Shown here piece after piece: positions 22,034-55,894 of a stretch of 64,000 nucleotides of DNA. The translations under genes and the position numbers were made by a program. Within the stretch, counting starts at the first letter, position 1. Every line of letters begins with the position of its first letter. The notes below the pieces were generated by a model that saw only the letters and a program-made list of their open reading frames with translations, ran no database searches and was not told the origin of the DNA. Source of the DNA: Malacoraja senta (lineage: Eukaryota); assembly GCA_038087875.1 (NCBI GenBank), contig CM075989.1, positions 2,790,001 through 2,854,000 on the forward strand. Reading direction: 5' to 3'.

Positions 22034-22233
22034 NNNNNNNNNNNNNNNNNNNNNNNNNNNNNNNNNNNNNNNNNNNNNNNNNNNNNNNNNNNNNNNNNNN
22101 NNNNNNNNNNNNNNNNNNNNNNNNNNNNNNNNNNNNNNNNNNNNNNNNNNNNNNNNNNNNNNNNNNNNNNNNNNNNNNNNNNNNNNNNNNNNNNNNNNNN
22201 NNNNNNNNNNNNNNNNNNNNNNNNNNNNNNNNN
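22034..22233. other. Assembly gap (200 N)
   Basis: Run of N. Confidence 1.
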
Positions 22234-29334: not shown

Positions 29335-30254
29335 TAGAGCCAGGATTTTGCCATAAATGCCATAAGTGCCTTTTCATGCCTTTTTTGATGCTTTCACCAG
29401 GATAATGCCTTTTTCACCATCGAGTGCCTAAATCAGCCTTTTTTTGCCGTTTTGCTATAAGGTCGTGCTATTTTCTCTAATTGTACCGTGATCACAATGA
29501 CGTTTTCTATGTTAACGCGTTAATATTAATGTTATTATTAACGTGTTAACATAGTATAAATTACAAGAAAACTTCTACCACCGGGGACAAACCGGGGGGC
29601 GCCACCGTCGGTCGTTCATTCGTTCGTGCCGCTGCCTGCTGGTTCAGTCTTCTCCAAAATCTATTTATTGCTTCCAATTTTGCAAACTTCCCGCAAGCCA
29701 TCACTTCCCTTGAGAAACGTGGCGAAACATTAGTGAATAACTTGCAGGTTTTCAACAAAGTAACTGACGATATTCGTAAAGTTCCTGGCGATGTAGGTAA
29801 AGATATACAAGGAAAATGTGAGAGAGTGATTTTAGCTAACAAAGATCTTGAAGTAATACAAAACATCGCTAAAGTTCTCAAAGGTAGTTGTAATGAACAA
29901 GATATCGACATGAATATAGAGTCTGTAGCTTGTTTCGGGTATGCACCAGTGACCTCAGCTGAGGTAGAAAGAAGTTTTTCACAACTGAAGCATATTCCGT
30001 CTGACAGACAGCACAGTTTAACACCTGATAATTTGAAAAATATGCAAGTAATTATGTGCAATCAGGCAACTTTGGTTATTTAATGTAGTAAGCCTTTATA
30101 TTATCATTTTAAACCATATTTTGGTGGTGGAAATACATGCCTTTTAATCTTTTTTTTGTCAATAAATGGCTTTTTTGTGCCTTTTTTGTAATTTTATTAT
30201 GCCTTTTTGCCTGCCTACTTCAGAGTTTTTTAGAGCCTAAACATCCTGGCTCTA
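29335..30254 (+). mobile_element. Internally deleted hAT transposon retaining the transposase C-terminus
   Basis: TIR TAGAGCCAGGAT / ATCCTGGCTCTA; TSD GTCATAAA / GTCATAAG; subterminal TGCCTTTTT repeats. Confidence 0.88.
29733..30083 (+). pseudogene. hAT transposase C-terminal (dimerisation domain) fragment
   Basis: YAPVTSAEVERSFSQLKHIPSDRQHSLTPDNLK matches the hAT P.TS..VERSFS motif. Confidence 0.85.
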
Positions 30255-30708: not shown

Positions 30709-33044
30709 CCCTAGTGTGAAAGGAGTGGATGAGAAAGTGGGACAACATAGAAGGAGTGTGAACTAGTTGCATGGCTCGGTGGGCCAAAGGCTCTGTTTCC
30801 ATGCTGTACCTCTAAGCTAAACTAAACTAAAAGGCAAAAGTGCTATTAAATGTATAGGTAGAAAGGAACATGGAGGGAAAAGGAAAATAAGAAAATATAG
30901 AAAGTTTGATGAAGTAAGGTGGGAGGAGGATTGTAGATAATATGCAGACCACTATGATTTCAGTGCTGAAATTTAAAGGAATTTAATTAAAGTTAAAGAG
31001 TTATAGAGTCCCTTCGGTCCATCGGCCCAACTTGCCCGCAACAGCCAACATGTCCCAGCTATAGTACATTTGTTCTATATCTCCGTACATCATCATCTAT
31101 ATCGTTCCTTTTCCTGTGACTTTCAGTCCAAAGAATGGTCTCGACCTGAAACTTCACCCATTCCTTCTCTCCAGAGATGCCGCCTGTCCCGCTGAGTTAC
31201 TCCAGCATTTTGTGTCTATCTTCGGTTTAAACCAGCATCAGCCGTTTAGTTTATTTAGTTTAGTTTAGTGATACAGCACAGAAATAGGCCCTTCGGCCCA
31301 TCGGGTCCGCGCTGACCAGCGATCCCCGCATATTAACACCATCCTACACCCACTAGGGACAATTTATACATTTACCAAGCCAATTAACCTGCAAACCTGT
31401 ACGTCTTTGGAGTGTGGGAGGAAACCAAAGATCTCGGAGAAAACCCACGCAGGTCACGGGGAGAACGTACAAACTCCGTACAGACAGCACCCGTAGTCGG
31501 GATCGAACCCGGGTCTCCGGCGCTGCATTCGCTGTAAGGCAGCAACTCTACCGCTACGCCACCGTGACTGCTCTAAGTTCCTTCCTACAGTAGCTGCGTT
31601 CGGTCCATATCCCTCCAAACCTGTCCTATCCTTGTACCTGTCTAACTGTTTCTTAAACATTGGGATGGCCCCTGCATCAACTACCTCCTCTGGCAGCTCG
31701 TTCCATACACCCACCACCCTTTGCGTGAAAAAGTCACCCCTCAACTTCCTATTCAATCTTGTCCCCTTCTCTAAAACCTATGTCCTCCGGTCCACGATTC
31801 ACCTCCCTGAGTGTTTCAGGAATTATTTCTGGGATGTTGACAATCATGAAAATTTAGTAAGGTGTCAATTGGAGCTCGCTTGCAATCTCCCCTCCCAGAA
31901 GTGACCACTGACGAGATTCATTTTCCTTCCTGGGCCACTTTCTCTGGCTTTTTTGACGAACATTACATTCATAAATCTCACTTCAGGTAATACCTTCAGA
32001 CCCGACTGCAATACAACATCAGGATATCGCTGTTGGATTAAATGTCAAGCACCAGAGCATAAAGTATCTGAATAATTCAAGCTACAGCCTGTGTTTAGAG
32101 TGACCTCATTAGTAACCCAGAAGTGAGAGAGACGCATTTGAAAAAACCACCGCTCTGCCACCAAGGAATAAAAATATAGAAAGGCAACATTAGAGCATTA
32201 AAGTTGCATTAACATAAAGTACAGCCAGCGAACCTCTGGCATCCACACGCCCGCAATGCTCCGTAGCTAATTGAGCTCATTCCACCGGTTGAGAAAATGA
32301 ACAAAGCAAGTGGTCAAATGATTGTACAGCTGACAGGCCACCAACAAAGCAATTTTCAGAGATTGGGCTTCGCAATTGCTGCCGCCTTGGTGCATTAATC
32401 TACACTAAAAGGCATCCCTGCAATATTATATTTCTGACATTTCTTCAAAGATCCATTGGATAATATTTGAGTGGAAGATTAAATGGATGGGAAAGTCTGT
32501 TAATTGGTATAATTCACGTTGTGAACAGAGCACTCGAGGTGAGGCAGGATTGAAGAGAGTGGAGTTTGCACATGGGTTGTGAGAAGAGATTAAATGGTTG
32601 GATAATTATTGCGTGGGTTGGGGGAAAGGAAACAGGCGGGACGCTGCTGTCTAAATATCTGATCCAGGGTGGCGCAGCGGGGGAGGTGCTGCCACACACC
32701 CGGGTTCGATCTTGACTATGGGTGCTGTCTGTGCAGAGTTTGTACGTTCCCCCCATGACCACGTGGGTTTTCTCCGAGATCTTCGGTTTCCTCCCGCACT
32801 CCCAAGACGTACAGGTGTGTCGGTTAATTGGCTTGGTATAAATGTAAATTGTCCCTAGTGTGTGTAGGGCAGTGTTAATGTGCGTGGATCACTGGTCGGT
32901 GTGGACTCGGTGGGCCGAAGGGCCTGTTTCTGCGCTGTATCTCTTAACTAAACTAAACCTGCTTTGGTTTTTTATGTGTAAATCTCACATGAGTAAATCA
33001 AATATAACAGTCCCTATTACTGGACTGCATTTCCGATTGGACTC

Positions 33045-33148
33045 ATAGATCATAGATCATAGAACTTAGATCATAGATCATAGATCATAGATCATAGAAC
33101 ATAGATCATAGAACATAGATCATAGATCATAGAACAGTACAGCACAAG
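33045..33148 (-). mobile_element. CR1 3' tail with (CATAGAT)n microsatellite; continues at 37918-38620 beyond the DIRS insertion
   Basis: ACAGCACAAG-AAT-GGGCCCTTTGGCCCAC is restored when the DIRS element is removed. Confidence 0.85.
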
Positions 33149-33378
33149 AATAGTAAGATTAAACGAGAACTTACCAGTTTGAAGTTTGATCTTTATTTTA
33201 TGAGGAGTTACGTTGGTGATTACGTGAAGAAGACCCGTCAGGGCGCATGCGCGTCAATCTTCAAAGCAGCGGTATGAAATCACAGACAACACAATAATTG
33301 AAGTAACATATTAAGATGATCAACATGAGAACTACCATTATGACCTTTTTTCTATGAGAGAGGGTTGGGCGTGGCGGG

Positions 33379-33490
33379 CACGTAATCACCAACGTAACTC
33401 CTCATAAAATAAAGATCAAACTTCAAACTGGTAAGTTCTCATTTAATCTTACTATTTTACTTCGGAGTCACGTGAGTGACTACGTGAAGA
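33379..33490. repeat. DIRS internal complementary region (ICR)
   Basis: 33379-33456 is the reverse complement of ~33149-33226; 33454-33490 is the reverse complement of ~37881-37917. Confidence 0.92.
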
Positions 33491-33724
33491 TTTTAAAGCT
33501 CTGTGATTTTTATGCCGCAGATCAAAATCCCGTCTTCTCACTGCATCGATTGACTCTGAGTATCATCAATAATGCTGTAAACATGACATTGCATATCATG
33601 CAAAAACAAAACAGTTTTATTTTAGGTCATAAAACAACCAATAAACCCTCTTAATGTAGGGGCAACAAACGAAACAGAATTAAACAGTATTGAAAACAGA
33701 CTTTAAACAATAGCAACAGCACTC

Positions 33725-34650
33725 AATATTGAGTTGGCAAACAGCCCTCCATCGGCAATCGGCCGATGGTAGTATTGCTGAAACACAAGTTCATTTTTCC
33801 AACCTGCGGCTTTTAATATATGGTCGCGGATGTTGCTACTGCGCTAGTGGAATGAGATGTAAACACATAAATGTTAATTCCTGCCTGAACCAACTCTTGC
33901 TTTAACCACCTTGAGATAGTCTGAACTGCCACTCTTTTATGTTGGCTTCTTGTAACTGACAAATAATCCTGTTTCTTCTTGTCTTAAAGCCCTTCTGGCT
34001 TCAATGTAATGTAAGAAATGTGTCCTTACACATAAACATGGAGCTGTAGGATATGCTGAGAACACAATCTTAAATCCTGTCACACCTGGCCTGCTTTGTT
34101 TGAGCAGGTCAGAAATATAAAACAGAACATTCTCTGTATTCACTTCCATTCTCTCGAACTGAAGTTTTTGCAAAGTCTGCACTCTCTGTACTGACACCAA
34201 TGCCATTAGCATAGCCAATTCAGCAAAGTTATAGACGTGACAGGGACCCAATGACGAAGCATGTTAAGAACAACGCTTACATCGCAGATTACCATATACG
34301 TAGGCTTAGGCGTTTTGGAATTAAAGATTCCTTTCATCAACCTAGATATGAGAGGGTGAGATCCTATACTTTGTGTCCGTGTACCTATTACAAGATATGC
34401 TGACAAAGCACTTCTAGCTGTATTGATAGCACTGTAGCTATGACCCTCATCATAATAAAGTGTAGATAAAACTCTAACACATTTTCAATAACTACAGTAT
34501 CATATTGAATATTCTTTTGAACACAATATTGTTCCCATTTTTTTTTTTTTTTTCCATGTCATATACTGTTTTTGAGTACTCTTTCTCCAGGCTGCAGTGA
34601 GTATATCCACCGTTGGACTAGAAAGTCCTCGACCAATGTAAGGCATTCTT
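33725..34650 (-). pseudogene. DIRS tyrosine recombinase (frameshifted)
   Basis: GHSYSAINTARSALSAY..GSHPLISRLMKGIFN..LMALVSVQRVQTL..LLKQSRPG..LFVSYKKP..ISRWLK..AAGW..FQQYY. Confidence 0.88.
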
Positions 34651-34769
34651 AAAACCTGCAAATTAACAGATCCATACGATCACATAACGGATGAACTTAA
34701 TGCGTTACTGGATGCTCCAGCAAATTCCTACTGTTTGGAATCAGCAAAAAGAGGTTGGATCGCTATCTG

Positions 34770-34975
34770 TAACATCAAAGGGAACCATGGTTGAATCAGG
34801 CAATTTGGTATCACCAAAACCCCTGAAGCGGCATCCTGCTTGATTTTCTCAAACACCGACCTATGAGGCAGAATGATGGGAAAATGTACACAAACATATC
34901 ATCCCAATTTAGTGAAAAAGCATCAATTGCCACTGCCCCTGGATCTGGTGCCTATGAAACATATTTTGGCCTTCC
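34770..34975 (-). pseudogene. DIRS N6-adenine methyltransferase-like domain remnant
   Basis: PKYVS*APDPGAVAIDAFSLNWDDMFVYIFPSFCLIG..VLVIP..QPWFP read on the minus strand. Confidence 0.7.
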
Positions 34976-34999
34976 ATATAGAAGTACTATGTTCTTGAA

Positions 35000-36340
35000 C
35001 ACATCCTGGTTCCACATCCACTCTGTGTTATGACGGAATTTTCGTGAGCTGCCATCTGGTACTACATTAAGTTTCCCTGGCAGATAGATAGCTCCAATCC
35101 AAATCTCTCTATCCCTACTCCAGGTCCAATTGTATTTGCCAACCTGTCACATGATAACGATTTGATTCCACCCATGTGATTTATATCAGCAACTGCTGTA
35201 GTGTTGTCTATTTTGCACTGCACATGCAAACTAGTTTAGTTAGTGCCATAAGCCTTGAGTCCATAAAATATTCTTGGTTAATTCCCCATGTTTGCAGAAG
35301 CAATGTTCATCTGTCTCCACAGCTGGATCTTGTATCAGTAGCACCCTACCCAAGTGCTCTGACATCTGTCTGCAAATCATGGAAGCTTGGTCCAATAACA
35401 CTTTGGAACTACTAGTGGACACATGCTGAATCCACCATTGTACTTCAGCAACAGCCTCTATTGATAGAAGCATAGGTCTATTATAATGACCCCAATGTAT
35501 CCTCAATGCTTGTTCCTTTGACCTTCGTAATTGTAGCTAATAAAGTGGCCATATTGAACTGCTGGAAATGCTGCCAGCCATTACCACAGCAGACTTGTCA
35601 CCTGGCTAATTGAAGGCTGTGTGTCAGCAATTAACTTGATACAGCTCTTAATTAGCTCTACCCTTTTTTGCCTGGGCAAGGTCACAATGATGTTGATTAA
35701 GTCTATTGTGAGCCCAACTAGTCAATTTGTGTCACAGGTATAACTTTAGATTTCTCTGGATAGCTTATGAAGCCCAATTAAAAAATGTTTTTTACCAACT
35801 GCTACGGATGCTTCAGCTGTTTCCTTTGATTGTCCTACAATCAAGATATTATCTAGTTAAGCCATGAGCACATGCCCTCGACTTCTCATCATGCCTAGAA
35901 TAGGTTTTAACAACTTTGTAATCCCTCTAGGAGCTGAAGACAAACTATCAGGCAGTGCATTGTATTGCAATAATTGCCCCATCCAGCTGAATTTTAAATC
36001 TTCTATCCAGCAAATGAACAGACACTGAATCCGTTTCTTTAAGACCTCCTTCACAAACATTTCCATCTTAAAATGTCTATACCCTATAAAAGGGTTAAGA
36101 CTATTCAGGTCCTGTATAATTCTGTATCCCCCATTCTTGCTTGGTCTGGGAAAGTTATTGGACACAAACTGATGACTTTGGTAAACTGCCTTAGCAATTA
36201 CACCTTTATTACATAAGCTTGCAAGTTCCAACTGAACTTCCAATTGTTCAGTGATACTGAAGTCAAACTCCTTTTTGGAACATGTTGCATGGGTAAATCA
36301 GAATTTGCATTAACCTTTGTTCGATATCCTTCTATAACCT
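35000..36340 (-). pseudogene. DIRS reverse transcriptase / RNase H (disrupted)
   Basis: PSKNGGYRIIQDLNSLNPFIGYRHFKME..LPDSLSSAPRGITKLLKP..A*LDNILI; downstream EVQWW and RNase H remnants. Confidence 0.88.
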
Positions 36341-37294
36341 TCAGTATAAACATATCTGAGGTATCACATTAGATCTGTCTACATGCGAACCAGACCCACT
36401 TACCTCCTTACCACCTGGCATTCGTCCCCGGCCCCGAGCTGGATATCTCACCTTCCCTGGCGGTGCTACAGCCAAACGCCAAGTGCGCTGCATCGTAGCT
36501 GGACTCGTCCCTTGCCCGGACCAGTCTCCTCGCTTATAGGGATACTTCCGCTTTGGTGGATATGTGGCTGCCGTCTTAGCCTCCTCCTCCAGCTCCTTCA
36601 CCTGCTGTGCGAAATCCTCGTCAAACAGCTGTGCCGGTTGCACTGTGCCAGGCTGGCAGAGTGAAGCATATTTAGAATTGATGGTTGGTCTAATCGCAGT
36701 CTTGCGAAGGCAGTTGATCTCAAAGTGGGCACTCCACAATAGCGCCTTTTGTTGTAATTTGTCATGGCCTCTCCATCCACCATCCTGGCAAAGCTCGTTA
36801 TACCAGATGCCAGCAACTTTAAAAATATCCTGGAGCTTCACATGCTCCTGGGCTCTCATTAGTATGCCCATCTTGCCCCAATTCTTCCTGTTCCCAACAG
36901 GAACTTTTAACAGTCCACAGTTGATTGGGGCTTCATGCTTCCTTACTGTCTCATCCATTGTCAGCTCCTGTAGCTGATGTGAGACTTGGTAATTTATGCT
37001 GGTGGCAAGTTCCTCACCCAGAGGCTCACCAGCGTCCGACGACGTGGCAAACCGTGCTGCACACGGTGTCAGCTCTAGCAGCTGCATGCCCTCCCTTTGG
37101 AAGTCGTCGTCGGACTCAGGGTCAGAGCGTATCTGCCCTTCTGCACTCACCTCTTGCAAAGAGGGTGCTTTCAAGCAGGCCTCTACCAGTGGAGCCTTCC
37201 CTAAGGCTTCCCGCCTGCACAACTCCTCCTGGAGTTGTGGCTTTGTGAAGCAGGCCTCTCCTAGGCACTGCCAGCGGAGCCGTCCCCACGGCAT
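36341..37294 (-). pseudogene. DIRS gag-like ORF1 remnant
   Basis: PINCGLLKVP..AHFEINCLRKTAIRPTINSKYASLC..LFDEDFAQQVKEL; lies upstream of RT; 84-bp tandem repeats at ~37165-37400. Confidence 0.7.
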
Positions 37295-37917
37295 CCCGCC
37301 TGCACAACACCCCCTGGAGTATGGCTTTATGAAGCAGACCTCTCCTAGGCACTGCCAGCGGAGCCTTTCCTATGGCTTCCCTCCTGCACTACTCCTCCTG
37401 GAGCGTCTCTGTGGAGCAGCCCCTGTATGAGCTGCTCCTTTTGGATAACCGCTGGGGAACGGTATCCTGTCCCCGACGGGACTCTCGTGGCCCGACTCTG
37501 CGGAGTCTATAGCCCTGACAGACTTAGCTTATGTCGACCGCCCGACTGGCGTTGGCTGTGTACCCGGCTGGGCACTTTGCCAAGTCTGTCGCCGCACCGC
37601 TACCGGCTTGCGACTCCCCTGAGGTGACAGGCTGCCTTTCAGAGACTGCGCTCCCGCAGCTCTCTCTCTCCTTGTCGGCAGCAGACCTGCACCTTTTCCT
37701 TGTTCCTGTATGTGGGGAAAAAACACACAGAAACAATTTTTTACTTTTCTCTAACTCCTCCAAAGTCTCCCCAACTTTGGTGGAGCTGTAATTACTCACC
37801 TGCAGAAGGAGCTCCGTCCTCCTGCTGCCGTTCGCGCCAATGCGTCAGACATAATGATGCGCATGCGCCCTGACGGGTCTTCTTCATGTAGTCACTCACG
37901 TGACTCCGAAGTAAAAT

Positions 37918-38620
37918 GGGCCCTTTGGCCCACAATGTTTTTGCCGAACATGATGCCAAGTTAAACTGATCTCACCTGCGTGTACATGATCCATATACAT
38001 CTATCCCTGCACTTCCTTGTACCCATCTAAAAGCCTTGTAGATGCCTCCACCACCACCCCAGCCAATGTGTTCTAAACCCTCACCACTCTTGGCCCACAC
38101 ATCTCCATTAAACTTTCCTCCTCTGACCATATAGCGATGCCCTCTGGTGTTGGACATTTCCACCCTGGGGAAAAAGGTTCTGACTGTCTACCCCATCTAT
38201 GCCTCTCATAATTGTATACACTTTTATCTAGTCTCCCCTCAACCACTGAGGTTCGATAGAAAACAATCGAAGTCTATCCAACCTCTCCCTGCAGCTCTCC
38301 AGGCAACATTCTGGTAAATCTCCCGCTCTGAATCCTCCGCATCTTGTAATGGGACGACCAGAACTGCACGCAATACTCCAAATGCAGCCTAACCAAAGTC
38401 CTAAAGAACTGCATCATGACTTCCTGACTCTTTTATTCAATGCCCCTCCCAATGAAGGCAAGCAGACCATATGCCTTCTTTACCACCCTAGCTACTTGTG
38501 TTGCCACCTTCAGTGAGCTATGAACTTGGACTCCAAGAATCTGCTGCACTTCAATGCTTTTAAGGTTCCATCCAATTAGAAATATTTGCCCCCAGTTTTT
38601 TAACTTCCACACCCTTTACG
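37918..38620 (-). mobile_element. CR1 LINE fragment (host of the DIRS element)
   Basis: LVRLHLEYCVQFWS..TRGHRYMVRGGKF remnants. Confidence 0.8.
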
Positions 38621-45090: not shown

Positions 45091-46958
45091 ACCATATAAC
45101 CATATAACCATAACAGCACGGAAACAGGCCATCTCGGCCCTTCAAGTCCGTGCCGAACACTTTTTTTTTTTTTAAGTTACTTTTTTTTAATATATTTTAT
45201 TTTTTATTTTTATTTTATTTATTTTTTTACTTCCCCCTAGTCCCATCTACCTGCACTCAGACCATAACCCTCCATTCCTTTCCCGTCCATATACCCATCC
45301 AATCTATTTTTAAAGGATAACATCGAACATGCCTCCACCACTTCCACTGGAAGCTCATTCCACACAGCTACCACTCTCTGAGTAAAGAAGTTCCCCCTAA
45401 TGTTCCCCCTAAACCTCTGTCCCTTAATTCTCAAGTCATGTCCCCTTGTTTGAATCTTCCCTACTCTCAATGGGAAAAGCGTATCCACGTCCACTCTGTC
45501 TAACCCGCTCATAATTTTAAAGACCTCTATCAAGTCCCCTCTTAACCTTCTGTGCTCCAAAGAATAAAGACCTAACTTGTTCAACCTTTCTCTGTAACTT
45601 AGTTGCTGAAACCCAGGCAACATTCTAGTAAATCTCCTCTGTACTCTCTCTATTTTGTTGACATCCTTCCTATAATTAGGCGACCAAAATTGTACTCCAT
45701 ACTCCAGAATTGGCCTCACCAATGCCTTGTACAATTTTAACATTACATCCCAACTTCTATATTCAATGCTCTGATTTATAAAGGCCAGCACACCAAAAGC
45801 TTTCTTTACCACCCTATCTACATGAGATTCCACATTCAGGGAACTATGCACAGTTATTCCTAGATCCCTCTGTTCAACTGCATTCCTCAATTCGCTACCA
45901 TTTACCATGTACGTCCTATTTTGAATTGTCCTGCCGAGATGTAGCACCTCACATTTGTCAGCATTAAACTCCATCTGCCATCTTTCAGCCCACTCTTCCA
46001 AATGGCCTAAATCTCTCTGTAGACTTTGAAAATCTACTTCATTATCCACAACACCCCCTACCTTAGTATCATCTGCATACTTACTAATCCAATTTTCCAC
46101 ACCATCATCCAGATCATTGATGTACATGACAAACAACAGTGGACCCAACACAGACCCCTGAGGCACCCGACTAGTCACCGGCCTCCAATCTGACAAACAG
46201 CCATCCACCATTACTCTCTGGCATCTCCCATTCAGCCACTGTTGAATCCATCTTGCTACTCCACCATTAATACCCAACAATTGAATCTTCTTAACCAACC
46301 TTCCATGAGGAACCTTGTCAAAGGCCGTACTGAAGTCCATATAGACAACATCCACTGCTTTACCCTCATCAATTTCCCTAGTAACCTCTTCGAAAAATTC
46401 AAGAAGATTAGTCAAACATGACCTTCCAGGCACAAATCCATGTTGACTGTTCCTAATCAGACCCTGCTTATCCAGATGCTTATATATATTATCTTTAAGT
46501 ATCCTTTCCATTAATTTGCCCACCACTGACGTCAAACTAACAGGTCTATAATTGCTAGGTTTACTCTTAGAACCCTTTTTGAACAACGGAACAACATGCG
46601 CAGTACGCCAATCCTCCGGCACTATTCCCGTTTCTAATGACATTTGAAATATTTCTGTCATAGCCCCTGCTATTTCTACACTAACTTCCCTCAATGTCCT
46701 AGGGAATATCCTGGAGACTTATCCGTTTTCATATTGTGAGATTCAAAGCACCTCCTCTTCTTTGAATCTCACAGTTTCCATTGCTACTCTGCTTGTGTCC
46801 CTTACCTCACATAATTCCATATCCTTCTCCTTGGTGAATACCGAAGAAAATAAATTGTTCAATATCTCCCCCATCTCTTTTGGCTCTGCAGATAGCTGTC
46901 CACTCTGACTCTCTAATGGACCAATTTTATTCCTTGTTATCCTTTTGCTATTAATATC
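45091..46958 (-). mobile_element. Young 5'-truncated CR1 (HER1-like) LINE inserted in the 5' LTR
   Basis: (ACCATATA)n tail; ACTTT duplicated at 45086-45090 and 46959-46963; absent from the 3' LTR. Confidence 0.93.
45237..46694 (-). CDS. CR1 ORF2 reverse transcriptase domain (485 aa open, N-terminally truncated)
   Basis: NYRPVSLTS, QHGF, DFSTAFDKVPH, VPQGSVLGP, YADDTK motifs. Confidence 0.92.
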   Translation of the reverse strand: MREVSVEIAGAMTEIFQMSLETGIVPEDWRTAHVVPLFKKGSKSKPSNYRPVSLTSVVGKLMERILKDNIYKHLDKQGLIRNSQHGFVPGRSCLTNLLEFFEEVTREIDEGKAVDVVYMDFSTAFDKVPHGRLVKKIQLLGINGGVARWIQQWLNGRCQRVMVDGCLSDWRPVTSRVPQGSVLGPLLFVMYINDLDDGVENWISKYADDTKVGGVVDNEVDFQSLQRDLGHLEEWAERWQMEFNADKCEVLHLGRTIQNRTYMVNGSELRNAVEQRDLGITVHSSLNVESHVDRVVKKAFGVLAFINQSIEYRSWDVMLKLYKALVRPILEYGVQFWSPNYRKDVNKIERVQRRFTRMLPGFQQLSYRERLNKLGLYSLEHRRLRGDLIEVFKIMSGLDRVDVDTLFPLRVGKIQTRGHDLRIKGQRFRGNIRGNFFTQRVVAVWNELPVEVVEACSMLSFKNRLDGYMDGKGMEGYGLSAGRWD

Positions 46959-47175
46959 ACTTTGTATCACCTCGTGCCAGCTCTAGAAATCTTTTGACCT
47001 TGTTATCTCGACCAGTGCCTGTTTTCGACCACTGTTTTTGCCTGCTCCTAGATTGTACTGTTGCCTCCGTTTTTGCTTACCTGTGTACCGACTTGGACCG
47101 ATTAAACTCTGAAAACTGATCTGCCCTGTGTCTGAGCCTGCATTTGAGTCCTCCTCCTCGTTCAGTTCTGATATT

Positions 47176-47185
47176 ACGAACTGGC
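47176..47185 (+). promoter_or_regulatory. Self-priming primer-binding site
   Basis: ACGAACTGGC is the exact reverse complement of LTR GCCAGTTCGT (45066-45075; 50384-50393). Confidence 0.8.
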
Positions 47186-47190
47186 CAACA

Positions 47191-48153
47191 ATGGACTCAG
47201 CGGGCTCTGATCTTTTTCATGCAGCGCTCCATAAGCAAGAGGAGCGCATCTCGCATTACGAGGGTCAACTCACCTCAATCTTCGCCGGGTTCCGGGATCT
47301 CGGCGAGCGTCAGCAGGGGTTCCAGGCGGACATCGGCTCACAGGTGAACACTTTAAGTTCCCGGTTTGAACACCTGGTTGCTCGGCTGGATTCTTTTTTC
47401 CCTGCCGCGGCTCCCGTGCCGGCCAAGTCTGTTTCCTTGTCTGTGTCTCCAGGAGCTCCGATGGCCACGGCTGCCGCAGCATCTCCATTCGTCCGCCTGG
47501 CAAGACTGGAACACTTTTCGGGGGAATCGGAGAAGTGTAGACCTTTTTTGATTCAGTGTGGACTGCATTTCGAACTTCAAGCGGCTTCCTTTCCATCAGA
47601 ACGCTCAAGGGTAGCCTTTATCATCACGCACATGTCGGGCAGAGCGGAGGCTTGGGCCACGGCGGAATGGTCTCGGAATTCTCCTGTTTGCCAGGCGTCG
47701 GTCCTGTTCATGGAAGCTCTGTCCCGCACGTTTGATCACTCCAATCCTGGCCGAGAGGCTTCGCAGAACCTGGTCTCCATGAAACAAGGTAATCGCACAG
47801 TTATGGATTTTGCTATTGACTTTCGAACTGTTGCTGCTAAGAGTGGATGGAATGAGGCTGCTTTGTTGGATGCTTTTCGCAATGGATTGTCTGAAGCTAT
47901 CAAAGATCAGTTGGCTCCACTAACTCTGCCTTCCGACTTCGAGTCTATGATTTCCCTGGCTGTCCAGATTGACGCTAGGCTCAGAGAAAGAGAGCGAGAG
48001 AGGAGATCGGCTGCAGTTCGGTCCTCCTCCCAGCAGGGGCGGCAGCATCGCCCTTCGCCTTCCGGTCGGGACTTCTTCCCTCTCCACCGGTCCAGTCAGC
48101 CTACAGCGCCACCTGTCTCTTCGGAGGAGCCCATGCAGGTGGGACGAGCCTAA
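47191..48153 (+). CDS. Sushi/PEG10-like Gag (320 aa; premature stop before the zinc knuckle)
   Basis: FSGE..CRPFLIQC..F..ERSRVAFII..GRAEAWA..QGNRTVMDFAIDFR..GWNEAAL..EEPMQVG; CFYCGELGH...C follows out of frame. Confidence 0.88.
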   Translation: MDSAGSDLFHAALHKQEERISHYEGQLTSIFAGFRDLGERQQGFQADIGSQVNTLSSRFEHLVARLDSFFPAAAPVPAKSVSLSVSPGAPMATAAAASPFVRLARLEHFSGESEKCRPFLIQCGLHFELQAASFPSERSRVAFIITHMSGRAEAWATAEWSRNSPVCQASVLFMEALSRTFDHSNPGREASQNLVSMKQGNRTVMDFAIDFRTVAAKSGWNEAALLDAFRNGLSEAIKDQLAPLTLPSDFESMISLAVQIDARLRERERERRSAAVRSSSQQGRQHRPSPSGRDFFPLHRSSQPTAPPVSSEEPMQVGRA

Positions 48154-48258
48154 CTCAGCCCGGAGGAGCGGCAGCGCCGCCTGTAAGGGGAGGTGTTTTT
48201 ACTGTGGTGAACTGGGACATTTGTTGAACAGCTGTTCAGTAAAAGATAAAACTCACCA

Positions 48259-48600
48259 ATGAAAGAGAGGACATTGGTGAGTTGTACCGCTCCTATGAGC
48301 CTTTCCTCTCATCAACTCACGGCTGTACAATTGTTGGTGCATTCCCAGCGTCACTCCCTGCAGGCTTTGGTTGATTCTGGGGCAGATGAGAACTTCTTGG
48401 ACATTCGCTTGGCTGATGAATTCAAGCTGGAACGTGAACAGCTTCAAAATCCTCTGGAGGCTAGTGCACTGGATGGGCGCCTACTGTGCAGGGTAACTCA
48501 CCGAACTCAACCTGTTCAACTCGTCGTGGCAGGTAATCACATTGAGACCATCAGGTTTCACCTCCTCGACTCTTCTCTTCATCCTCTGGTTTTGGGGCTC
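48259..48600 (+). pseudogene. Aspartic protease of the sushi element
   Basis: ALVDSGADENF..ALDGR..PLVLG. Confidence 0.85.
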
Positions 48601-50155
48601 TCTTCTTTAATCGGTTTGATTTTGTACTTTCTTACCGCCCTGGTGCCAAGAATGGCAAACCTGATGCTCTCTCCAGACAGTTTGATCCTGACCCGGCCCC
48701 TAAAGTTTCAACTCCCATTCTGCCTGCTTCCTGTGTTGTTGGGGCGGTTACTTGGGAGATTGAGAAGAGAGTTTCCGAGGCTACTGCTGGTAGTCAGTCC
48801 CCGCTAGGGTGTCCCTCTAATCGTCTGTTTGTTCCCGAGTCTCTTCGCTCACAGGTGATTCACTGGGCTCATACGTCCCGGATCTCCTGTATTCCCGGTG
48901 TCGGCCGAACCCTGTTTGTGGCCAAACAGCGGTTTTGGTGGCCTTCCATGGAGAGGGGGATTAAGGAGTACTTCGCCGCCTGCAGTATTTGTGCTCAGAA
49001 CAAGACCTCACGTCGGCCTGTCTTTGGCCTCTTGAGTCCGCTGCCTGTCCCCTCACGCCCCTGGTCAGACATCTCCATGGACTTTGTCACGGGCCTGCCC
49101 TCTTCTGAAGGTAACACCAGTCATGACTGTATTGGACAGATTTTCTAAGATGGTCCACTTCATTCCATTGCACAAGCTTCCCTCCGCCAAGAAAACGGCG
49201 GAGGTCATGTTGTCTCATGTTTTTCGAATTGATGGATTTCCCAGAGACATTGTGTCTGACCGGGGGCCTCAGTTCGTGTCCAGGTTTTGGAAGGAGTTTT
49301 GTACTCTGTTGGACACCACGGTCAGCCTTACATCTGGTTATCACCCGGAATCCAATGGACAAACTGAACGCCTTAACCAGGAATTGGAGACAGGACTGCG
49401 GTGCTTGGTGGCACAGAACCCTTCAACTTGGAGCAAACACCTTATTTGGGTGGAGTATGCACACAACACACTTCCTTGCTCATCCTCTGGTCTCTCTCCA
49501 TTCCAGTGTGCCTATGGTTATCAACCGCCATTGTTCCCTGCTGTGGAGAAGGAGTCCAGTGTGCCCTCCGCTCAGGCTCTCGTCCGTCGCTGTCACAAGG
49601 TTTGGAATGGGGCTCGTCAGATGCTGTTGCGCAGTTCTGCGCGTTACAAGAGGATGGCTGACCGTGGAAGAACGCCGGCTCCAGTATACTCGCCTGGCCA
49701 CAAGGTGTGGCTCTCCACTCCAGACTTACCTCTGAGAGTGGAATCCCGGAAGCTGGCTCTTCGTTTTGTTGGTCCTTTCCCCATATCGAAGGTCATCAAT
49801 CCTGTGGCGGTTCGTCTCCAGCTCCCCCATGCCATGAGGGTCCACCCTACTTTCCATGTCTCCCGACTGAAGCCATTTAAGGAGAGTCCTCTGGTCCCTG
49901 CCTCCAAACCCCCTCCGCCTCCCCGGCTCCTTGATGGGGGTCCAGTGTTTACGGTAAGCCGGTTGCTGGGGATGAGCCGGCGTGGTCGTGGTCATCAGTA
50001 TCTTGTGGATTGGGAGGGTTATGGACCCGAGGAGCGGTCTTGGGTGCCGACTCGCTACATATGCAACCCTGAACTTATCAGGGAATATCGGCGCCAACAT
50101 CCTGAAGATCCTGGGCCATCAGGAGCCGGCCGTGGATGGTGGGGGGGTGGGGTAC
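48601..50155 (+). pseudogene. RNase H tail, integrase and chromodomain (frameshifted)
   Basis: YRPGAKNGKPDALSR; H..C..C zinc region; [49 protein letters not shown]. Confidence 0.9.
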
Positions 50156-50618
50156 TGTCAGGTCTCATGTTTGATCTAGTTTCTGTTTCTTATTGTTTTT
50201 TATTATTATTGGTTGCATTCTTGTTTTATTTTGGTGTCTCACATCTCCTCTCGTTTCAGGTCCCATTTCCTGTCATGTCGTTTCCCCTCGTGGGCCCTGC
50301 TGGCCCTGCCCTGATGTGTTTCACCTGTGTCTCGTTATCCCGTTAGGCTGTGTATTTAAGCCCTTTGTGTTTTAGTTCTCATTGCCAGTTCGTTGTGTAT
50401 GTTACTTTGTATCACCTCGTGCCAGCTCTAGAAATCTTTTGACCTTGTTATCTCGACCAGTGCCTGTTTTCGACCACTGTTTTTGCCTGCTCCTAGATTG
50501 TACTGTTGCCTCCGTTTTTACCTACCTGTGTACTGACTTGGACCGATTAAACTCTGAAAACTGATCTGCCCTGTGTCTGAGCCTGCATTTGAGTCCTCCT
50601 CCTCGTTCAGTTCTGATA
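50156..50618 (+). repeat. 3' LTR (463 bp)
   Basis: Matches the reassembled 5' LTR (453 bp) apart from a ~10-bp indel and a few substitutions. Confidence 0.95.
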
Positions 50619-51725
50619 TGCTGCCTCTCCCGCTGAGTTATTTCAGCTTTTAGCATCTGCAGTTGCTTTCTACTTGGGCTTGTTTTAACAGTGTATCTTT
50701 CTTTTTTAATTCTCCTGGAGGTGAGACTAGTGTAGGTGCGCCATCTTGACTGGCACGAGTAAGTAGGGCCGAAGGTCCTGTTCTGTTTCCATGCTGTATG
50801 ACTCCAGGACTCAGGATAACAGCTCAGAACTGACGCACTGCATCTGTATAGATGCCACCTACTCAAGGCCATTTCAGGTGAAGTTATTAAAAGTTAGCTT
50901 TACCAGTGACACCTACACCTCGATGGTTCAATGGATCAATGGTCCTTTATTGTCACGTGTATCGAGGTACAGTGAAATTGATTTACCATACAGTCATACA
51001 AAAAAACAGAAGCTAGATACAAAACTACATAGAGATTAAACAAAAACAGCCCCCACAGCGGCATGTGAGAATCCCCAGGGCACACAGCATAAGCGGAGAC
51101 CCACAGCCATCAGTTCAATGTCTGGGACACACACACGCTCCGTCACCGTGATGTGACCAGAGTTGTACCGACCGCCGCCACGCTCTCCGCAGTCCCCCAC
51201 CCCCCCCCCCCCGCACCCCCCACCCCCCAAGTAACATGGGACCAGTGTGAATGGGTGATCAATGGTCAGCATGGATTTAGTGGGCCGAAGGGCCTATTTC
51301 TATTCTGTATCCCTAACCTAAACTAAACAGATCATTGATCATGTGAATCTGAGGTTAATCGGGACTTTTCCTCACATAGGTTGGGGAAAGTTTAGAATGC
51401 TCTGGTGCAGAGGGATGTGGAGGTTACGTCATTGCAGGTGTTTCAAGAAGAAGTTGAATCTTCTTCTTCTTGCATATGGCGTGCACAGCCTAAAGTTGTA
51501 GGACAACGTTGTAGATGGTTTATGCATGCAACCAATAATATAGCTACCTCAGTACCACTAACCACGCCTTAGTTATCAAGTATAAGAACTCTATCTCCCG
51601 TGTGCTCCTCCCTTGGTTCCAGCATGATGACAGACTGGGTGCAGTCAGTGCTGGAAAGTGTTTAACCTGTCTTATTATTAAACGTCAAGTAAAGTTACAA
51701 GTGAGTCAGACTCAGCTTCTTTACA

Positions 51726-51738
51726 TGGTGTTAGCAAG
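51726..51738 (+). promoter_or_regulatory. tRNA primer-binding site (tRNA-Leu-like, degenerate)
   Basis: TGGTGTTAGCAAG directly after the LTR; resembles TGGTGTCAGAAG. Confidence 0.6.
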
Positions 51739-51819
51739 TTTAAACGCGTGCCTCCTGTATATCATGGGGGGGTTTTCTTTGAAAGTGTTGCTTTATCGGA
51801 GTTTTGTGACTTTTTGGCC

Positions 51820-54800
51820 ATGGCATCCTCGTGCCGCCAACCCTCGCCCCTGGTCTTTGATGCTGACATAGCTGAACGCTGGGCGACTTTTGAAATGGAC
51901 TTCACTCATTACATCAATATCGTGCATCGCAACGATCCCGATATTGTTAAAGCTTCTCTCCTACTGAACCATGCGGGTCCAGATGCCATGAGGAGAGCGC
52001 GAGCCTTTGCCTATGATCCCGAGGTCCAGGATGCGAACGACCTGATTCAGGTACCTGCGGAGTCTGCAAACGACCCAATATGTCTATTGCGAAAATTTGC
52101 CGAAATTTGCGACTTGCCCTCGAACCGTATTTTAGAGCGAGCAAAGTTTTTCACGAGAAAGCAACAGCCCGACGAACATGTTGAATGCTTTATTGTGGAT
52201 CTGCGCTATCTCGCACAGCGATGCCGATTTGAAAACATGACTGACCAGCTAACCAGGGACATTTTAATGACAGGTATGCTGGATCAGAAACTGCGATCCG
52301 AGCTACTAAGGAGGCCGGATCTTACACTGACAGACGCAATGCATGCATGCAGGTTGGCTGAAGTCGTTGACCCGTTGTTCGGACAAAGGGGCACTGATGG
52401 TCGATCGGTCAATTTAACTGGTCTCAACAGACCACGTCCCAAAATAGATAACGCTAGACCCGCGCCGCGGGCAGGTTATGTCCCCGGAGGACGGGTGGTT
52501 ATAAGGTGCCCTAATTGTAACTATGTACATTCAATGCAATCGCAGTGTCCGGCTTATGGTAAATCATGTAATTTCTGCAAGAGATTGAATCACTTCTCGG
52601 CGGTTTGCCGTTCCCGTGGGAACCTGCCACCTGTTCCTAGACAAGTATTAAACAACCTAGCACAAGTTGATAGCGATTTTGGTTCCCAGTCCTCTCTCGA
52701 CACTGCCCACGACTCTGAGGCAATTAGTTCTCAAGGAGATGCTAGTATATTTACACTCCTACACGCACCTGCTCGCCTCCCCGATCCATCGGTCCTCGTT
52801 ACCGTCAACAACTGTCCGTTCACAGCCAAACTCGACACGGGGGCAAAAGTCAATGTTATGTCAACAAACCTGTTCAGAAAGATTAGACACAATGAACCAC
52901 TGACTTCAGACCGTTCGACCTTACGTGCCTATGGGGGCGAGGTACTGAAACCTGTGGGAAAGGCAACTTTTAATTGTGTGCTGCAGAGGTCATCGCGGCC
53001 CCTCATGTTTTATGTTCTGGATTCCGATTGTGTGACTCTGTTGGGCAACCAGGCATGCCAAGACCTGGGACTAGTGTCCTTCGATCGTACTGTCCACGAA
53101 ATACGGTTGCCAATGGATCCGTTATCCGAGTACCCGGATCTGTTTGATAATGAGCTGGGCAAACTGCCCCTTGTCTACAAGATTGTCACCGACCCCAAAG
53201 TGGTGCCAGTGGTCCGTGCACCACACAGAGTATCCCTCGCTTTAAAGGATAAAGTGGAAGCGATGCTGAAGAGCATGGTTACAATGGGGCTGCTGGAAGC
53301 AGTGAGCGAGCCCACCGAGTGGGTCTCCACCATGGTTGCTACCCTGAAAAAGGACAAAAATGAGATACGGGTGTGTATCAACCCCAAAGACCTGAACCTC
53401 GCGATCAGGCGGCCACACTACCCCATGAGAACCGTAGAGGACGTCGCAGCTCAGGTCGGCCAGGCTACGGTGTTTTCTGTCCTTGATGCAAAAAGCTCTT
53501 TCTGGCAAATACCACTCGATAGGCGCTCCTCCGACCTGACAACTTTTTCCACTCCTTATGGCAGATTTAAGTTTCTACGGATGCCATTCGGTATTAACTC
53601 TGCCAGTGAAGTGTTTCAGCGATCCATGGAACAGCTGTTCGCTGGCATGCCTTGCGCCATCATCGTTGACGACATCCTAGTTTATGGGGAGAATGCCACC
53701 GAACATGATAAGAACCTCCGCAGAGTCCTGGACCGTGCCCAGCAGATCAACTTAAAACTGAACAAGAACAAATGCCGGTTCCGTGTCTCAGAGGTGCCGT
53801 ACGTCGGGCACATCTTCACTTCCAATGGACTGAAACCCGACCCGCAAAGGACTATTGCAATATCCGAAATGCCAGCCCCAACTGACGTGCTTGGTCTACA
53901 ATGATTCCTGGGCATGGTCAACTACCTCGGGAAGTTTGTACCGAATCTCAGTGAGCTGAGCTCATCCCTGAGACAACTAACTAAGAAAGGCATCGCCTGG
54001 TCCTGGTTTCCACAACACCAGCAGGCTTTCGAATGTCTGGGTGCTGCTTGCCTGCAGCTCTACGGCGACGGCTCCCTGCTACCGGTCTCGTATGCCTCTC
54101 GGACCATGACCGACACGGAGCAACGATATGCTCAGATCGAGAAGGAGCTCCTGGCTGTGGTGTTTGCTTGTTCCAAATTCAAAGACTTTCTCTTTGGCTG
54201 TAGATTCACAGTCGAGACCGACCACCAGCCACTGGTGACCATTCTTAACAAACCCATACATGTTGCCCCTGCCAGACTACAACGTATGATGCTGCAACTC
54301 CAGCGTTTTGATTTTGAAATCACATACAAGAAAGGAACGGAGATGCATGTTGCTGACACACTTTCTCGCGCCCCACGGGCATCCTGTGACCGCCACCCTT
54401 ATGAGCAGGAAAATCTACTCGTACTTAATGTCAACTTTGTTCCAACCAAGCAGCTACAGAGCCTGATCGAGCACACCGCCGCGGACCCCGCACTGCAGCA
54501 GCTGGCTGCCATCATCAAGCGCGGGTGGCCCGTCAAACGTACCAATTTGCCATCGGGCGCACAACCGTTCTTCCTGGTCTGCGACGAGCTGGTGATCCAG
54601 GATGGGGTTATCGTCAAAAGCCACAAAGTTGTGGTCCCAGCCTCTCTATACGATCTATACTACAACGCAGCCCACATTGGTCATCCTGGAATCGAGGCCA
54701 CTGTTTCTCATGCCCAAGGACAGTTCTACTGGCCTGGCATGGCCAACTACATCAGGAACCGGGTGTCCTCCTGTGCCTCCTGCAACAACCTTACCCCACA

Positions 54801-55894
54801 CCAGCAGCGTCAACCTCTTCTGCAGCAGCCGGCGCCAGCCATGCCTTGGACATCGCTGGCTGCTGACATATTCGAATGGCGGGGTAAGCACTTTCTTGTC
54901 CTGGTGGACTCATTCTCCAATTGGTTCGACATTGACCACCTTCCGTCCGCCACCTCCGGGAGGGTCATCGCAAAGATGCGTCAGCATTTCGCCGACCACG
55001 GCGTCCCTGTCCGCTTACAGACCGACAATGGACCGCATTTCACAAGTGCCGAGTTCAAAGCTTTCGCTGCAAGGTGGAACTTCCATCACTACACCAGCAA
55101 TAACGGCCTGGCCGAACGGGCCGTGCGGAGTGCTAAGGGCCTGATGGAGCAGTCCCGCCTGTCAAACAGCGATATTTACCTGGACTTACTTAACATACGT
55201 AACGTTTCACGGGACCCGTTTATGGGTTCCCCTGCCCAACGTCTGATGTCCAGAGTGACAGGACAACCCATGCCCATCGCCCAGCAGTCCCTGATGCCCA
55301 AAGTGTTCGATCCTGCCACAGTCCAAAGACGGATCGATCATAAACATGAAGTTCAACGGCGTTCCCACGACAGGTCCTGCCGCCCTCTGCTGCCTCTGCT
55401 ACCCGGGCAGGTCGTTCGGATGCGGACCGCCACCGGCTATTCCCGCCTCGCGACGGTGACTGGCGTGGACGACTCTCCAAGATCGTACCTGGTGGATTAC
55501 GAAGGGACTACCTACCGACGCAGCCGTCAGCATCTGTTGGCCGTCAACGAGTCAAAGCCTCCTCCTGCGCCTCCTTATGCTCCTCCGTTGTCGTTTCCAC
55601 CTGCTGCCGCTGATCACCCTGCTGCTCCATGCATGCCCCATTCCCCTCGCTTATTGCGGTCTCCTGTTTCGCTGCCTCCTGGTCTTGGCCGGTCGCTGTC
55701 ACCTCCTGCACGTCCTTCCCCTCCTATCTCTCCCGCTCCTGCTCTGGCTGCATCTCCCCCTCCCTTGCCGTTCCTGCCTGCCTCCGCTACGGCTTCTCTT
55801 CTTTCTGATGGGGGGGGGGGGGGGGGAAGGTGCTGTACGTACGCGTTCGAGTCGCATTGTTAAGCCGCCTGTCCGTTACGGCGACTTTGTCTAA
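51820..55894 (+). pseudogene. Gag-pol: two CCHC knuckles, PR, RT, RNase H, IN; stop at 53902-53904 and in-frame deletions
   Basis: CPNC..H..C and CNFC..NHF..C; LDTGA; LDAKSSFWQ, RMPFG, IVDD; YAQIEKE, ETDHQPL; HIGH..CASC, ADIFE, TDNG, GLAER. ORFs 51748..53904 and 53914..55863 are in the same frame. Confidence 0.93.

Follow-up and report, generated by a model that had tools for sequence, protein, structure and literature searches.

A DIRS1-like element with broken genes in Malacoraja senta, probably a recent insertion mobilised in trans

On the minus strand at positions 33149..37917 of a 64,000-nucleotide stretch of Malacoraja senta DNA (contig CM075989.1, positions 2,790,001 to 2,854,000; "the window" below means this whole stretch) lies a 4,769-bp element of the DIRS1-like superfamily. 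We regard this identity, and an integration crossover within the terminal triplet, as practically certain. The internal complementary region (ICR) and the ends of the element are 98% alike, its pol looks much older, and a number of its lesions recur in other sequencing contigs; therefore we think it likely that this is a young insertion of a long-dead template that was mobilised in trans. In the mechanism that we propose, the element would have inserted recently into the 3' untranslated region (UTR) of a CR1-like long interspersed nuclear element (LINE). Following the published model, its ends would have been restored on the ICR as reverse transcription proceeded and, once joined over ATT, recombined with a target ATT; each end would keep a single triplet, without a true target-site duplication (TSD). 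The gag, pol and tyrosine recombinase (YR) of the template would have been dead long before this latest jump, with reverse transcriptase (RT) and YR supplied in trans by less-decayed relatives.

The ends of the element agree closely with a sequence-only reading of the window, which had described the ICR as the complement of the right end joined to the left end over AAT. The reverse complement of the ICR (33379..33490, minus strand) corresponds to 37881-37917 (37 nt of the 5' end) plus 33149-33226 (78 nt of the 3' end), with one common AAT at ICR positions 33454-33456. The ICR and the joined ends are identical at 110/112 positions, and both mismatches fall at CpG sites (2/6 CpG sites discordant). 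The flanks, AAG-AAT|AGTAAG on the left and GTAA-AAT|GGG on the right, had been given with the right letters and coordinates. As the element lies on the minus strand, the "left end" of that reading is the 3' end and the triplet is ATT in the element's own orientation. The element both starts and ends with ATT (37915..37917 and 33149..33151, placed by comparing the ICR with the ends). The inverted terminal repeats (ITRs), at 37855..37917 on the 5' side and 33195..33256 on the 3' side, are 86% identical over 63 columns; in the left one, the outer 32-33 nt or so are divergent and the 30 nt inside them conserved, agreeing with the right ITR at 29/30. An extension of about 46 nt at the 3' end (33149..33194) is matched solely by the ICR.

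Every feature that defines the DIRS1-like superfamily and can be tested is present, among them inverted terminal repeats with divergent and conserved parts and an extension, an ICR close to the 3' end that is complementary to both ends and whose halves overlap by 3 bp, and, in this copy, an NTT triplet at both ends without a conventional TSD, which we looked for and rejected. The Ngaro, PAT and VIPER class, with split direct repeats, was ruled out because the terminal repeats are inverted; the sole terminal direct match, of 27 nt (33204 against 33464), is explained by the symmetry of ITR and ICR. The overlap of ICR and ends is exactly 3 nt, since the letters of element and host differ on either side of AAT, a trinucleotide that makes up 1.9% of those in the window. 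The identity as DIRS, the reading of the ICR as the circle junction and a crossover within AAT are all upheld; the crossover had been presented as an inference of its own, and is in fact part of the published DIRS model (PMC7192593, PMC3266345; here and below, cited papers are represented by the excerpts available of each). According to the Cappello model, DIRS ends are rebuilt from the ICR in each cycle (PMC7192593). The formation of circles had also been taken as established, which goes too far: the complementary DNA of DIRS-1 is mostly linear and single-stranded, and inverse polymerase chain reaction for the junction failed in an active system (PMC7192593). The double-stranded circle and its recombinase step are a model only. 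Contig joints 33490->33234 were considered as circle junctions and rejected; they are the 5' end of copies aligned on the ICR, then the ITR. The ends, ICR and junction of the element largely follow the known pattern. As a case of DIRS it is clean and textbook-like, and the additions made here are modest.

The flanks of the element belong to one interrupted repeat, also on the minus strand. The right flank (37918..38573) is the body of a CR1-like LINE, holding the 3' part of ORF2 and the 3' UTR, and aligns to the C-terminal half of a CR1-like RT open reading frame (ORF) elsewhere in the window (aa 274-416 at 38573-38168, E 1.7e-30). The left flank (33043..33148) is the 3' tail, with (TCATAGA)x13 at 33043-33133. 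An RT-bearing ORF2 followed by a 3' UTR that closes in a microsatellite tail places the host repeat in the CR1 group of LINEs; the label "CR1" itself is one that we presume. Our literature search returned no description of the host repeat motif. Contigs of four sequencing runs (X1, X2, X3 and X6, of 24 listed) were aligned to the window, and we viewed 15 of the 1,453 rows of contig joints and 8 contig pieces per run. The element is skipped by 7 of the 15 viewed rows. An exact empty-site joint, 33148->37915 with 3 letters fitting either side, is found in 6 contigs of X1 and 9 of X2, as expected if removal of the element restores the CR1 tail with its AAT; these contigs span only 28 letters on the short side, over which a paralogue and an empty allele are indistinguishable. 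Other joints that skip the element carry different letters, including the CpG form. Among 32 other copies of the motif in the window, 22 have GTT at the target position and 3 have ATT, and none shows the four letters of this copy. The target triplet was probably a CpG-decay variant of the host repeat.

In place of further copies of the family, the comparison drew on 71 metagenome loci that carry pol relatives, at 38-58% identity to the query P0153. Complete elements are present in 8 of these, with ICR halves of 35-41 and 80-86 nt that overlap on or around AAT; the ICR and at least one end are readable in 32. The 5' ends, with 24 distinct flanks, have ATT in 22 cases and GTT in 2, both from mirror-assembled contigs. 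The 3' ends (n=14; of 16 rows, 2 proved to be mirrored copies of the ICR and were set aside) have ATT in 12 cases, ACT in one and ATA in one. The mirror-image contigs, L002 and L053, are perfect over 4.6-4.8 kb, are probably fold-back assembly artefacts, and carry the only GTT 5' ends counted. These counts bear on another history of the target, in which it was GTT, at a CpG site, when the element inserted and became ATT later by deamination, the perfect match being partly coincidental. The base in question is the very base that would come from the target, GTT prevails in the window copies just described, host-repeat contigs with the CpG form are present (X1, depth 194), and GTT does occur at 2/24 of the relatives' 5' ends. 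Yet element-free host copies with AAT exist (the 6 and 9 contigs above), the 22:2 ratio of ATT to GTT leaves GTT only in mirror-assembled contigs, and no more than 2/6 CpG sites have decayed in the ICR comparison. A GTT target therefore seems very improbable to us.

The crossover had been placed within a shared trinucleotide. AAT is indeed found both here and in the empty site, but full sharing would not be required, judging from relatives that accept mismatches of fixed polarity. In Table 3 of PMC3266345, ATT ends with an AAT junction are the commonest DIRS form. Among the rows of this table whose junction is 3 nt long, there is a single mismatch on the 5' side, at base 1, and there are seven on the 3' side, six of them at base 2 and the other at base 3. 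When this table is pooled with our relatives, the 5' mismatches are 3/3 at base 1 and the 3' mismatches 9/9 at bases 2-3. This polarity, though based on small numbers, leads us to infer that the net exchange falls between A and TT, a suggested register A|TT in which imperfect targets are tolerated. A single copy cannot resolve the position of the crossover within 3 nt, and two other flanks of the window's family were seen in contigs in which the triplet is unreadable. Scans of metagenome and viral contigs with terminal-motif patterns gave 0 matches. Such a register may already be described in the papers of Goodwin, Poulter and Cappello. In one clade of loci (L029, L031, L040-L071), the junction reads A ahead of ATT; an A stands in front of the ATT in most of their 5' flanks as well, which hints at a possible 4-nt preference for AATT.

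A further conserved signal lies near the 3' end. The motif GGTAAGT (33169..33175, minus strand), 24 nt from the 3' triplet, is kept in relatives: it stands 22-24 nt from the junction in the ICR of 8/8 complete relatives (L006, L011, L014, L016, L017, L041, L046 and L069), all found without using the motif. In a motif-selected set, (C/A)AG precedes GTAAGT in 16/19 distinct relative junctions, the families being related and not independent. The last 46 nt or so, identical to L011 and L017 at 41-42 of 47 columns, are far better conserved than the proteins. The motif resembles the consensus of a 5' splice site. Our literature search found no description of a splice-donor motif in DIRS elements, and a motif search of the supplements of PMC3266345 gave no match, the element sequences perhaps not being covered there.

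The coding part of the element, on the minus strand throughout, consists of three remnants. That of gag lies at 36341..37403 (core 36563-37060), that of pol, RT-RNase H-methyltransferase (MT)-like, at 34652..36362 (by frameshift-aware alignment to relatives), and that of the YR at 33718..34670 (by alignment to four relatives). The order gag, RT/RNase H/MT, YR, with the YR replacing a DDE integrase, was recognised through relatives, whose third ORF is a protein of the phage-integrase family (PF00589 in two of them, E 4e-12 and 1e-9) and whose YR is 38-44% identical to the remnant. Pfam scans of the window's own fragments gave no significant family for the element, a homologue search with the RT frame retained 0 of 1,067 candidates, and in an Atlas search gag scores only 0.77. 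For the RT fragment, 1,916 relatives were found at E <= 0.001; these carry RVT_1 and in some cases also Dam or RNase H. Twenty clusters of the nearest relatives bore no informative name, and the only organism name encountered is that of Mytilus edulis, with a protein that is 44% identical to relative P0001 and falls outside the window's clade. All three ORFs are broken, where an autonomous copy would have them intact. In pol there are about 9 frameshifts, 7-8 stops and 2-3 deletions (six relatives aligned), the deletions lying near 36000 (13-16 aa), 35300 (~8 aa) and 34969 (14 aa). The YR has 5 frameshifts and an 8-9 aa deletion adjoining its HSTR motif. The gag core, 25-35% identical to the gag of four relatives, holds a compensating frameshift pair near 36820 and 36746-36773, and the 5' part of gag an 84-bp tandem repeat (x2.6, 85% alike, 37186-37403). 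Three intact relatives passed through the same aligner as a control showed zero lesions.

The age of the insertion and that of the decay can be estimated separately. The ICR and the ends differ at 2/112 positions (95% confidence interval 0.2-6.3% pairwise), or 3/142 with the conserved ITR. With ends that are copied afresh from the ICR at every round, as in the Cappello model, this 98% match dates the last jump and is not evidence of selection; the insertion would be recent, at about 1% divergence per copy. Against this stand 22/103 aligned invariant residues of pol that are changed, with 12/115 deleted or frameshifted, compared with 1, 2, 2 and 7 of 115 changed in four intact relatives. In simulation, change reaches 21% at d = 0.10 and the 97.5% bound is 11% at d = 0.03, and the decay of pol would correspond to about 7-10% neutral drift. 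The sequence-only reading had already noted near-intact cis signals beside broken ORFs and proposed that the divergence of termini and ORFs be compared; both observations hold, and the reading that suits them best is that a template already dead gave rise to a young insertion.

The contigs carry this argument further. X3 contig 20 runs through 6 frameshifts and 2 deletions of this copy and differs from 34646-35641 by 9 substitutions, with 0 gaps. Six gap-free X6 contigs (28 differences/1,491 nt) span lesions near 33939, 34461, 34747, 34848, 34969, 35129 and 35300, and in X3 contig 23, which covers the frameshift pair of gag, the sole gap is one of 3 nt located elsewhere. Lesions are therefore common to this copy and to X3/X6 contigs, which may or may not stem from independent insertions. 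Distances to this copy are 36/2,776 over five of the eight X3 pieces viewed and 28/1,491 over six of the eight from X6; three X3 contigs (28/168, 34/205 and 32/701 differences) and two gapped X6 contigs were left out of these distances. Contigs of X1 and X2 that skip 320-340 nt (35996-36336, 36657-36992, 36671-36993) represent internally deleted derivatives, the joint 36671->36993 being present in 4 and 2 contigs. Loose ends at 33212 and 33393 in X6 and X3 mark a variant with a shorter terminus/ICR segment, and one in X3 at 33231 shows a different ITR, so that sister families exist.

An older history would explain part of these data: a functional insertion may have decayed in place, its ICR and ends being homogenised afterwards through hairpin repair or gene conversion; the contigs that match it would then be orthologues from related species. 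The half of the ICR that matches the 3' end (rICR) and the 3' end itself, 152 nt apart, are predicted to fold as a very stable hairpin (-103 kcal/mol, z -19), the interval on 2/112 is wide, and organisms B and C hold 22-41% of words. However, the far pair (4.4 kb apart, 1/37 mismatch) is matched as well as the near pair (1/78), and a bridge from flank to element occurs in none of the pieces viewed. Two loose ends in X6 have unrelated flanks adjoining the element's 3' end. The low numbers of contigs aligned to the window in X3 and X6 (169 and 246, beside 258,346 in X1 and 146,150 in X2) seem to reflect mere traces of this repeat content there and suggest multi-copy pile-ups, depth and contig counts being no measure of copy number. 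We judge decay in place to be unlikely. Even less probable, in our opinion, is that the dead element was multiplied passively, by segmental duplication or inside a larger repeat, and not via its own pathway. Shared lesions alone say nothing of how copies arose, but passive copying would not hold the ICR and ends 98% alike through about 10% drift, nor does it fit the precise empty site and the unrelated flanks at the 3' end.

Mobilisation of a dead template in trans, which we prefer, should be weighed against several observations. Not every lesion is shared. Against the YR region, X3 contig 17 shows 41 gap letters; X3 contig 21 departs by 32 substitutions along with 16 gap letters; and extra letters occur in X1/X2 contigs at 35373, 35551 and 36271. 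The contigs of X3 and X6 could come from related organisms and represent the orthologous locus there. With the ICR clock set to its upper bound (3% per copy, with an assumed indel ratio of 1:6), 11 pol indels have P = 0.24, and 3/4 control relatives lie within the clade that defines the invariant set, which lowers their baseline. The comparison, made without a whole genome, revealed no intact helper and no second full copy with flanks, and the closest relative, P0001, is only 56% identical. In a quick tree, the window branch measures 0.88 and that of its sister P0001 0.30. The family comprises subfamilies at different stages of decay, with some private lesions.

Published systems provide precedents for most of these features. 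The mollusc-type rows LgDIRS1, LgDIRS3 and AcaDIRS1 (Piednoel et al. 2011, PMC3266345, Table 3) have ATT/ATT ends and an AAT junction. LgDIRS1 measures 4,680 bp, with divergent ITR 35, conserved ITR 31, right extension 48 and ICR 39-86 (PMC3266345), and the window element, compared by geometry alone, 4,769 bp, ~32, ~30, ~46 and 37-78. All four elements lack a long ORF overlap; unlike the mollusc-type rows, the window element has only dead ORFs. Its host also differs from theirs in being, as we take it, a vertebrate. The DIRS elements of Anolis, stickleback, Tetraodon and Xenopus share the ITR, ICR and right extension and the gag-pol-YR order (PMC3266345; PMC9210276), but end in CTT/TTT/GTT; their conserved ITRs measure 102-148 nt, their extensions 26-34 nt and the whole elements 5.3-6.2 kb. 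In terminal geometry the window element is closer to the mollusc rows than to those of fish, frog and lizard. DIRS elements are among the ancestral vertebrate elements, chondrichthyans included (PMC4350176); our literature search returned no description of a cartilaginous-fish DIRS, nor any of non-autonomous DIRS beyond a passage on TOC1.

In Dictyostelium, the ICR of DIRS-1 is likewise complementary to both ends, with a different triplet (TTA/TAA) and much longer ITRs. The ICR is indispensable there, and the DIRS-1 proteins, RT included, are able to act in trans (PMC7192593). Trans action was demonstrated there on constructs, whereas here it would be read from natural copies. TOC1 of Chlamydomonas is also a non-autonomous element of the DIRS order (10.1101/2022.06.16.496473); TOC elements have split direct repeats, not ITR and ICR (PMC3266345), and the window element keeps full-length decayed ORFs.

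Other features of the window lie outside the element. A CR1-like ORF2 fragment at 45237-46718 (minus strand) is open over 493 codons and matches RVT_1. Two Ty3/Gypsy-like elements follow on the plus strand, one at 47113-50346, the broken frames of which contain capsid, integrase, SH3 and chromo domains, the other at 51682-55863, where RT, RNase H and integrase are spread over two long frames. A 177-aa frame at 29550-30083 (plus strand) matches the hAT dimerisation domain. A 16-bp minisatellite at 8593-10240, in about 100 copies, yields spurious long ORFs, and a gap of 200 N occupies 22034-22233.

These observations may have consequences for the study of DIRS elements. Two sequences that are identical at insertion give an age, as in dating by the divergence of long terminal repeats (LTRs). 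The match of the ICR to the ends can serve as such an insertion clock, a coarse one beside LTR-LTR dating since it spans only 112-142 nt and is CpG-rich. Judging from natural copies, dead templates may pass through the entire DIRS cycle in trans, up to and including integration. A register that can be put to the test follows from the polarity of the end mismatches; it concerns the DIRS recombinase, the specificity of which was described in 2020 as experimentally unexamined (PMC7192593). A broader picture is tempting, although we hold it to be rather doubtful: a high-copy lineage of full-length, coding-dead DIRS elements with mollusc-type ends, carried in trans in a vertebrate genome for some ten times the age of this insertion; a fixed-register A|TT exchange, with A from the element's 3' end and TT from its 5' end, and a target preference without strict 3-bp homology; and (C/A)AG|GTAAGT as a required signal, either a U1 or a recombinase site. 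If this were true, the many copies would allow the cut register and the minimal cis signals to be read from one genome.

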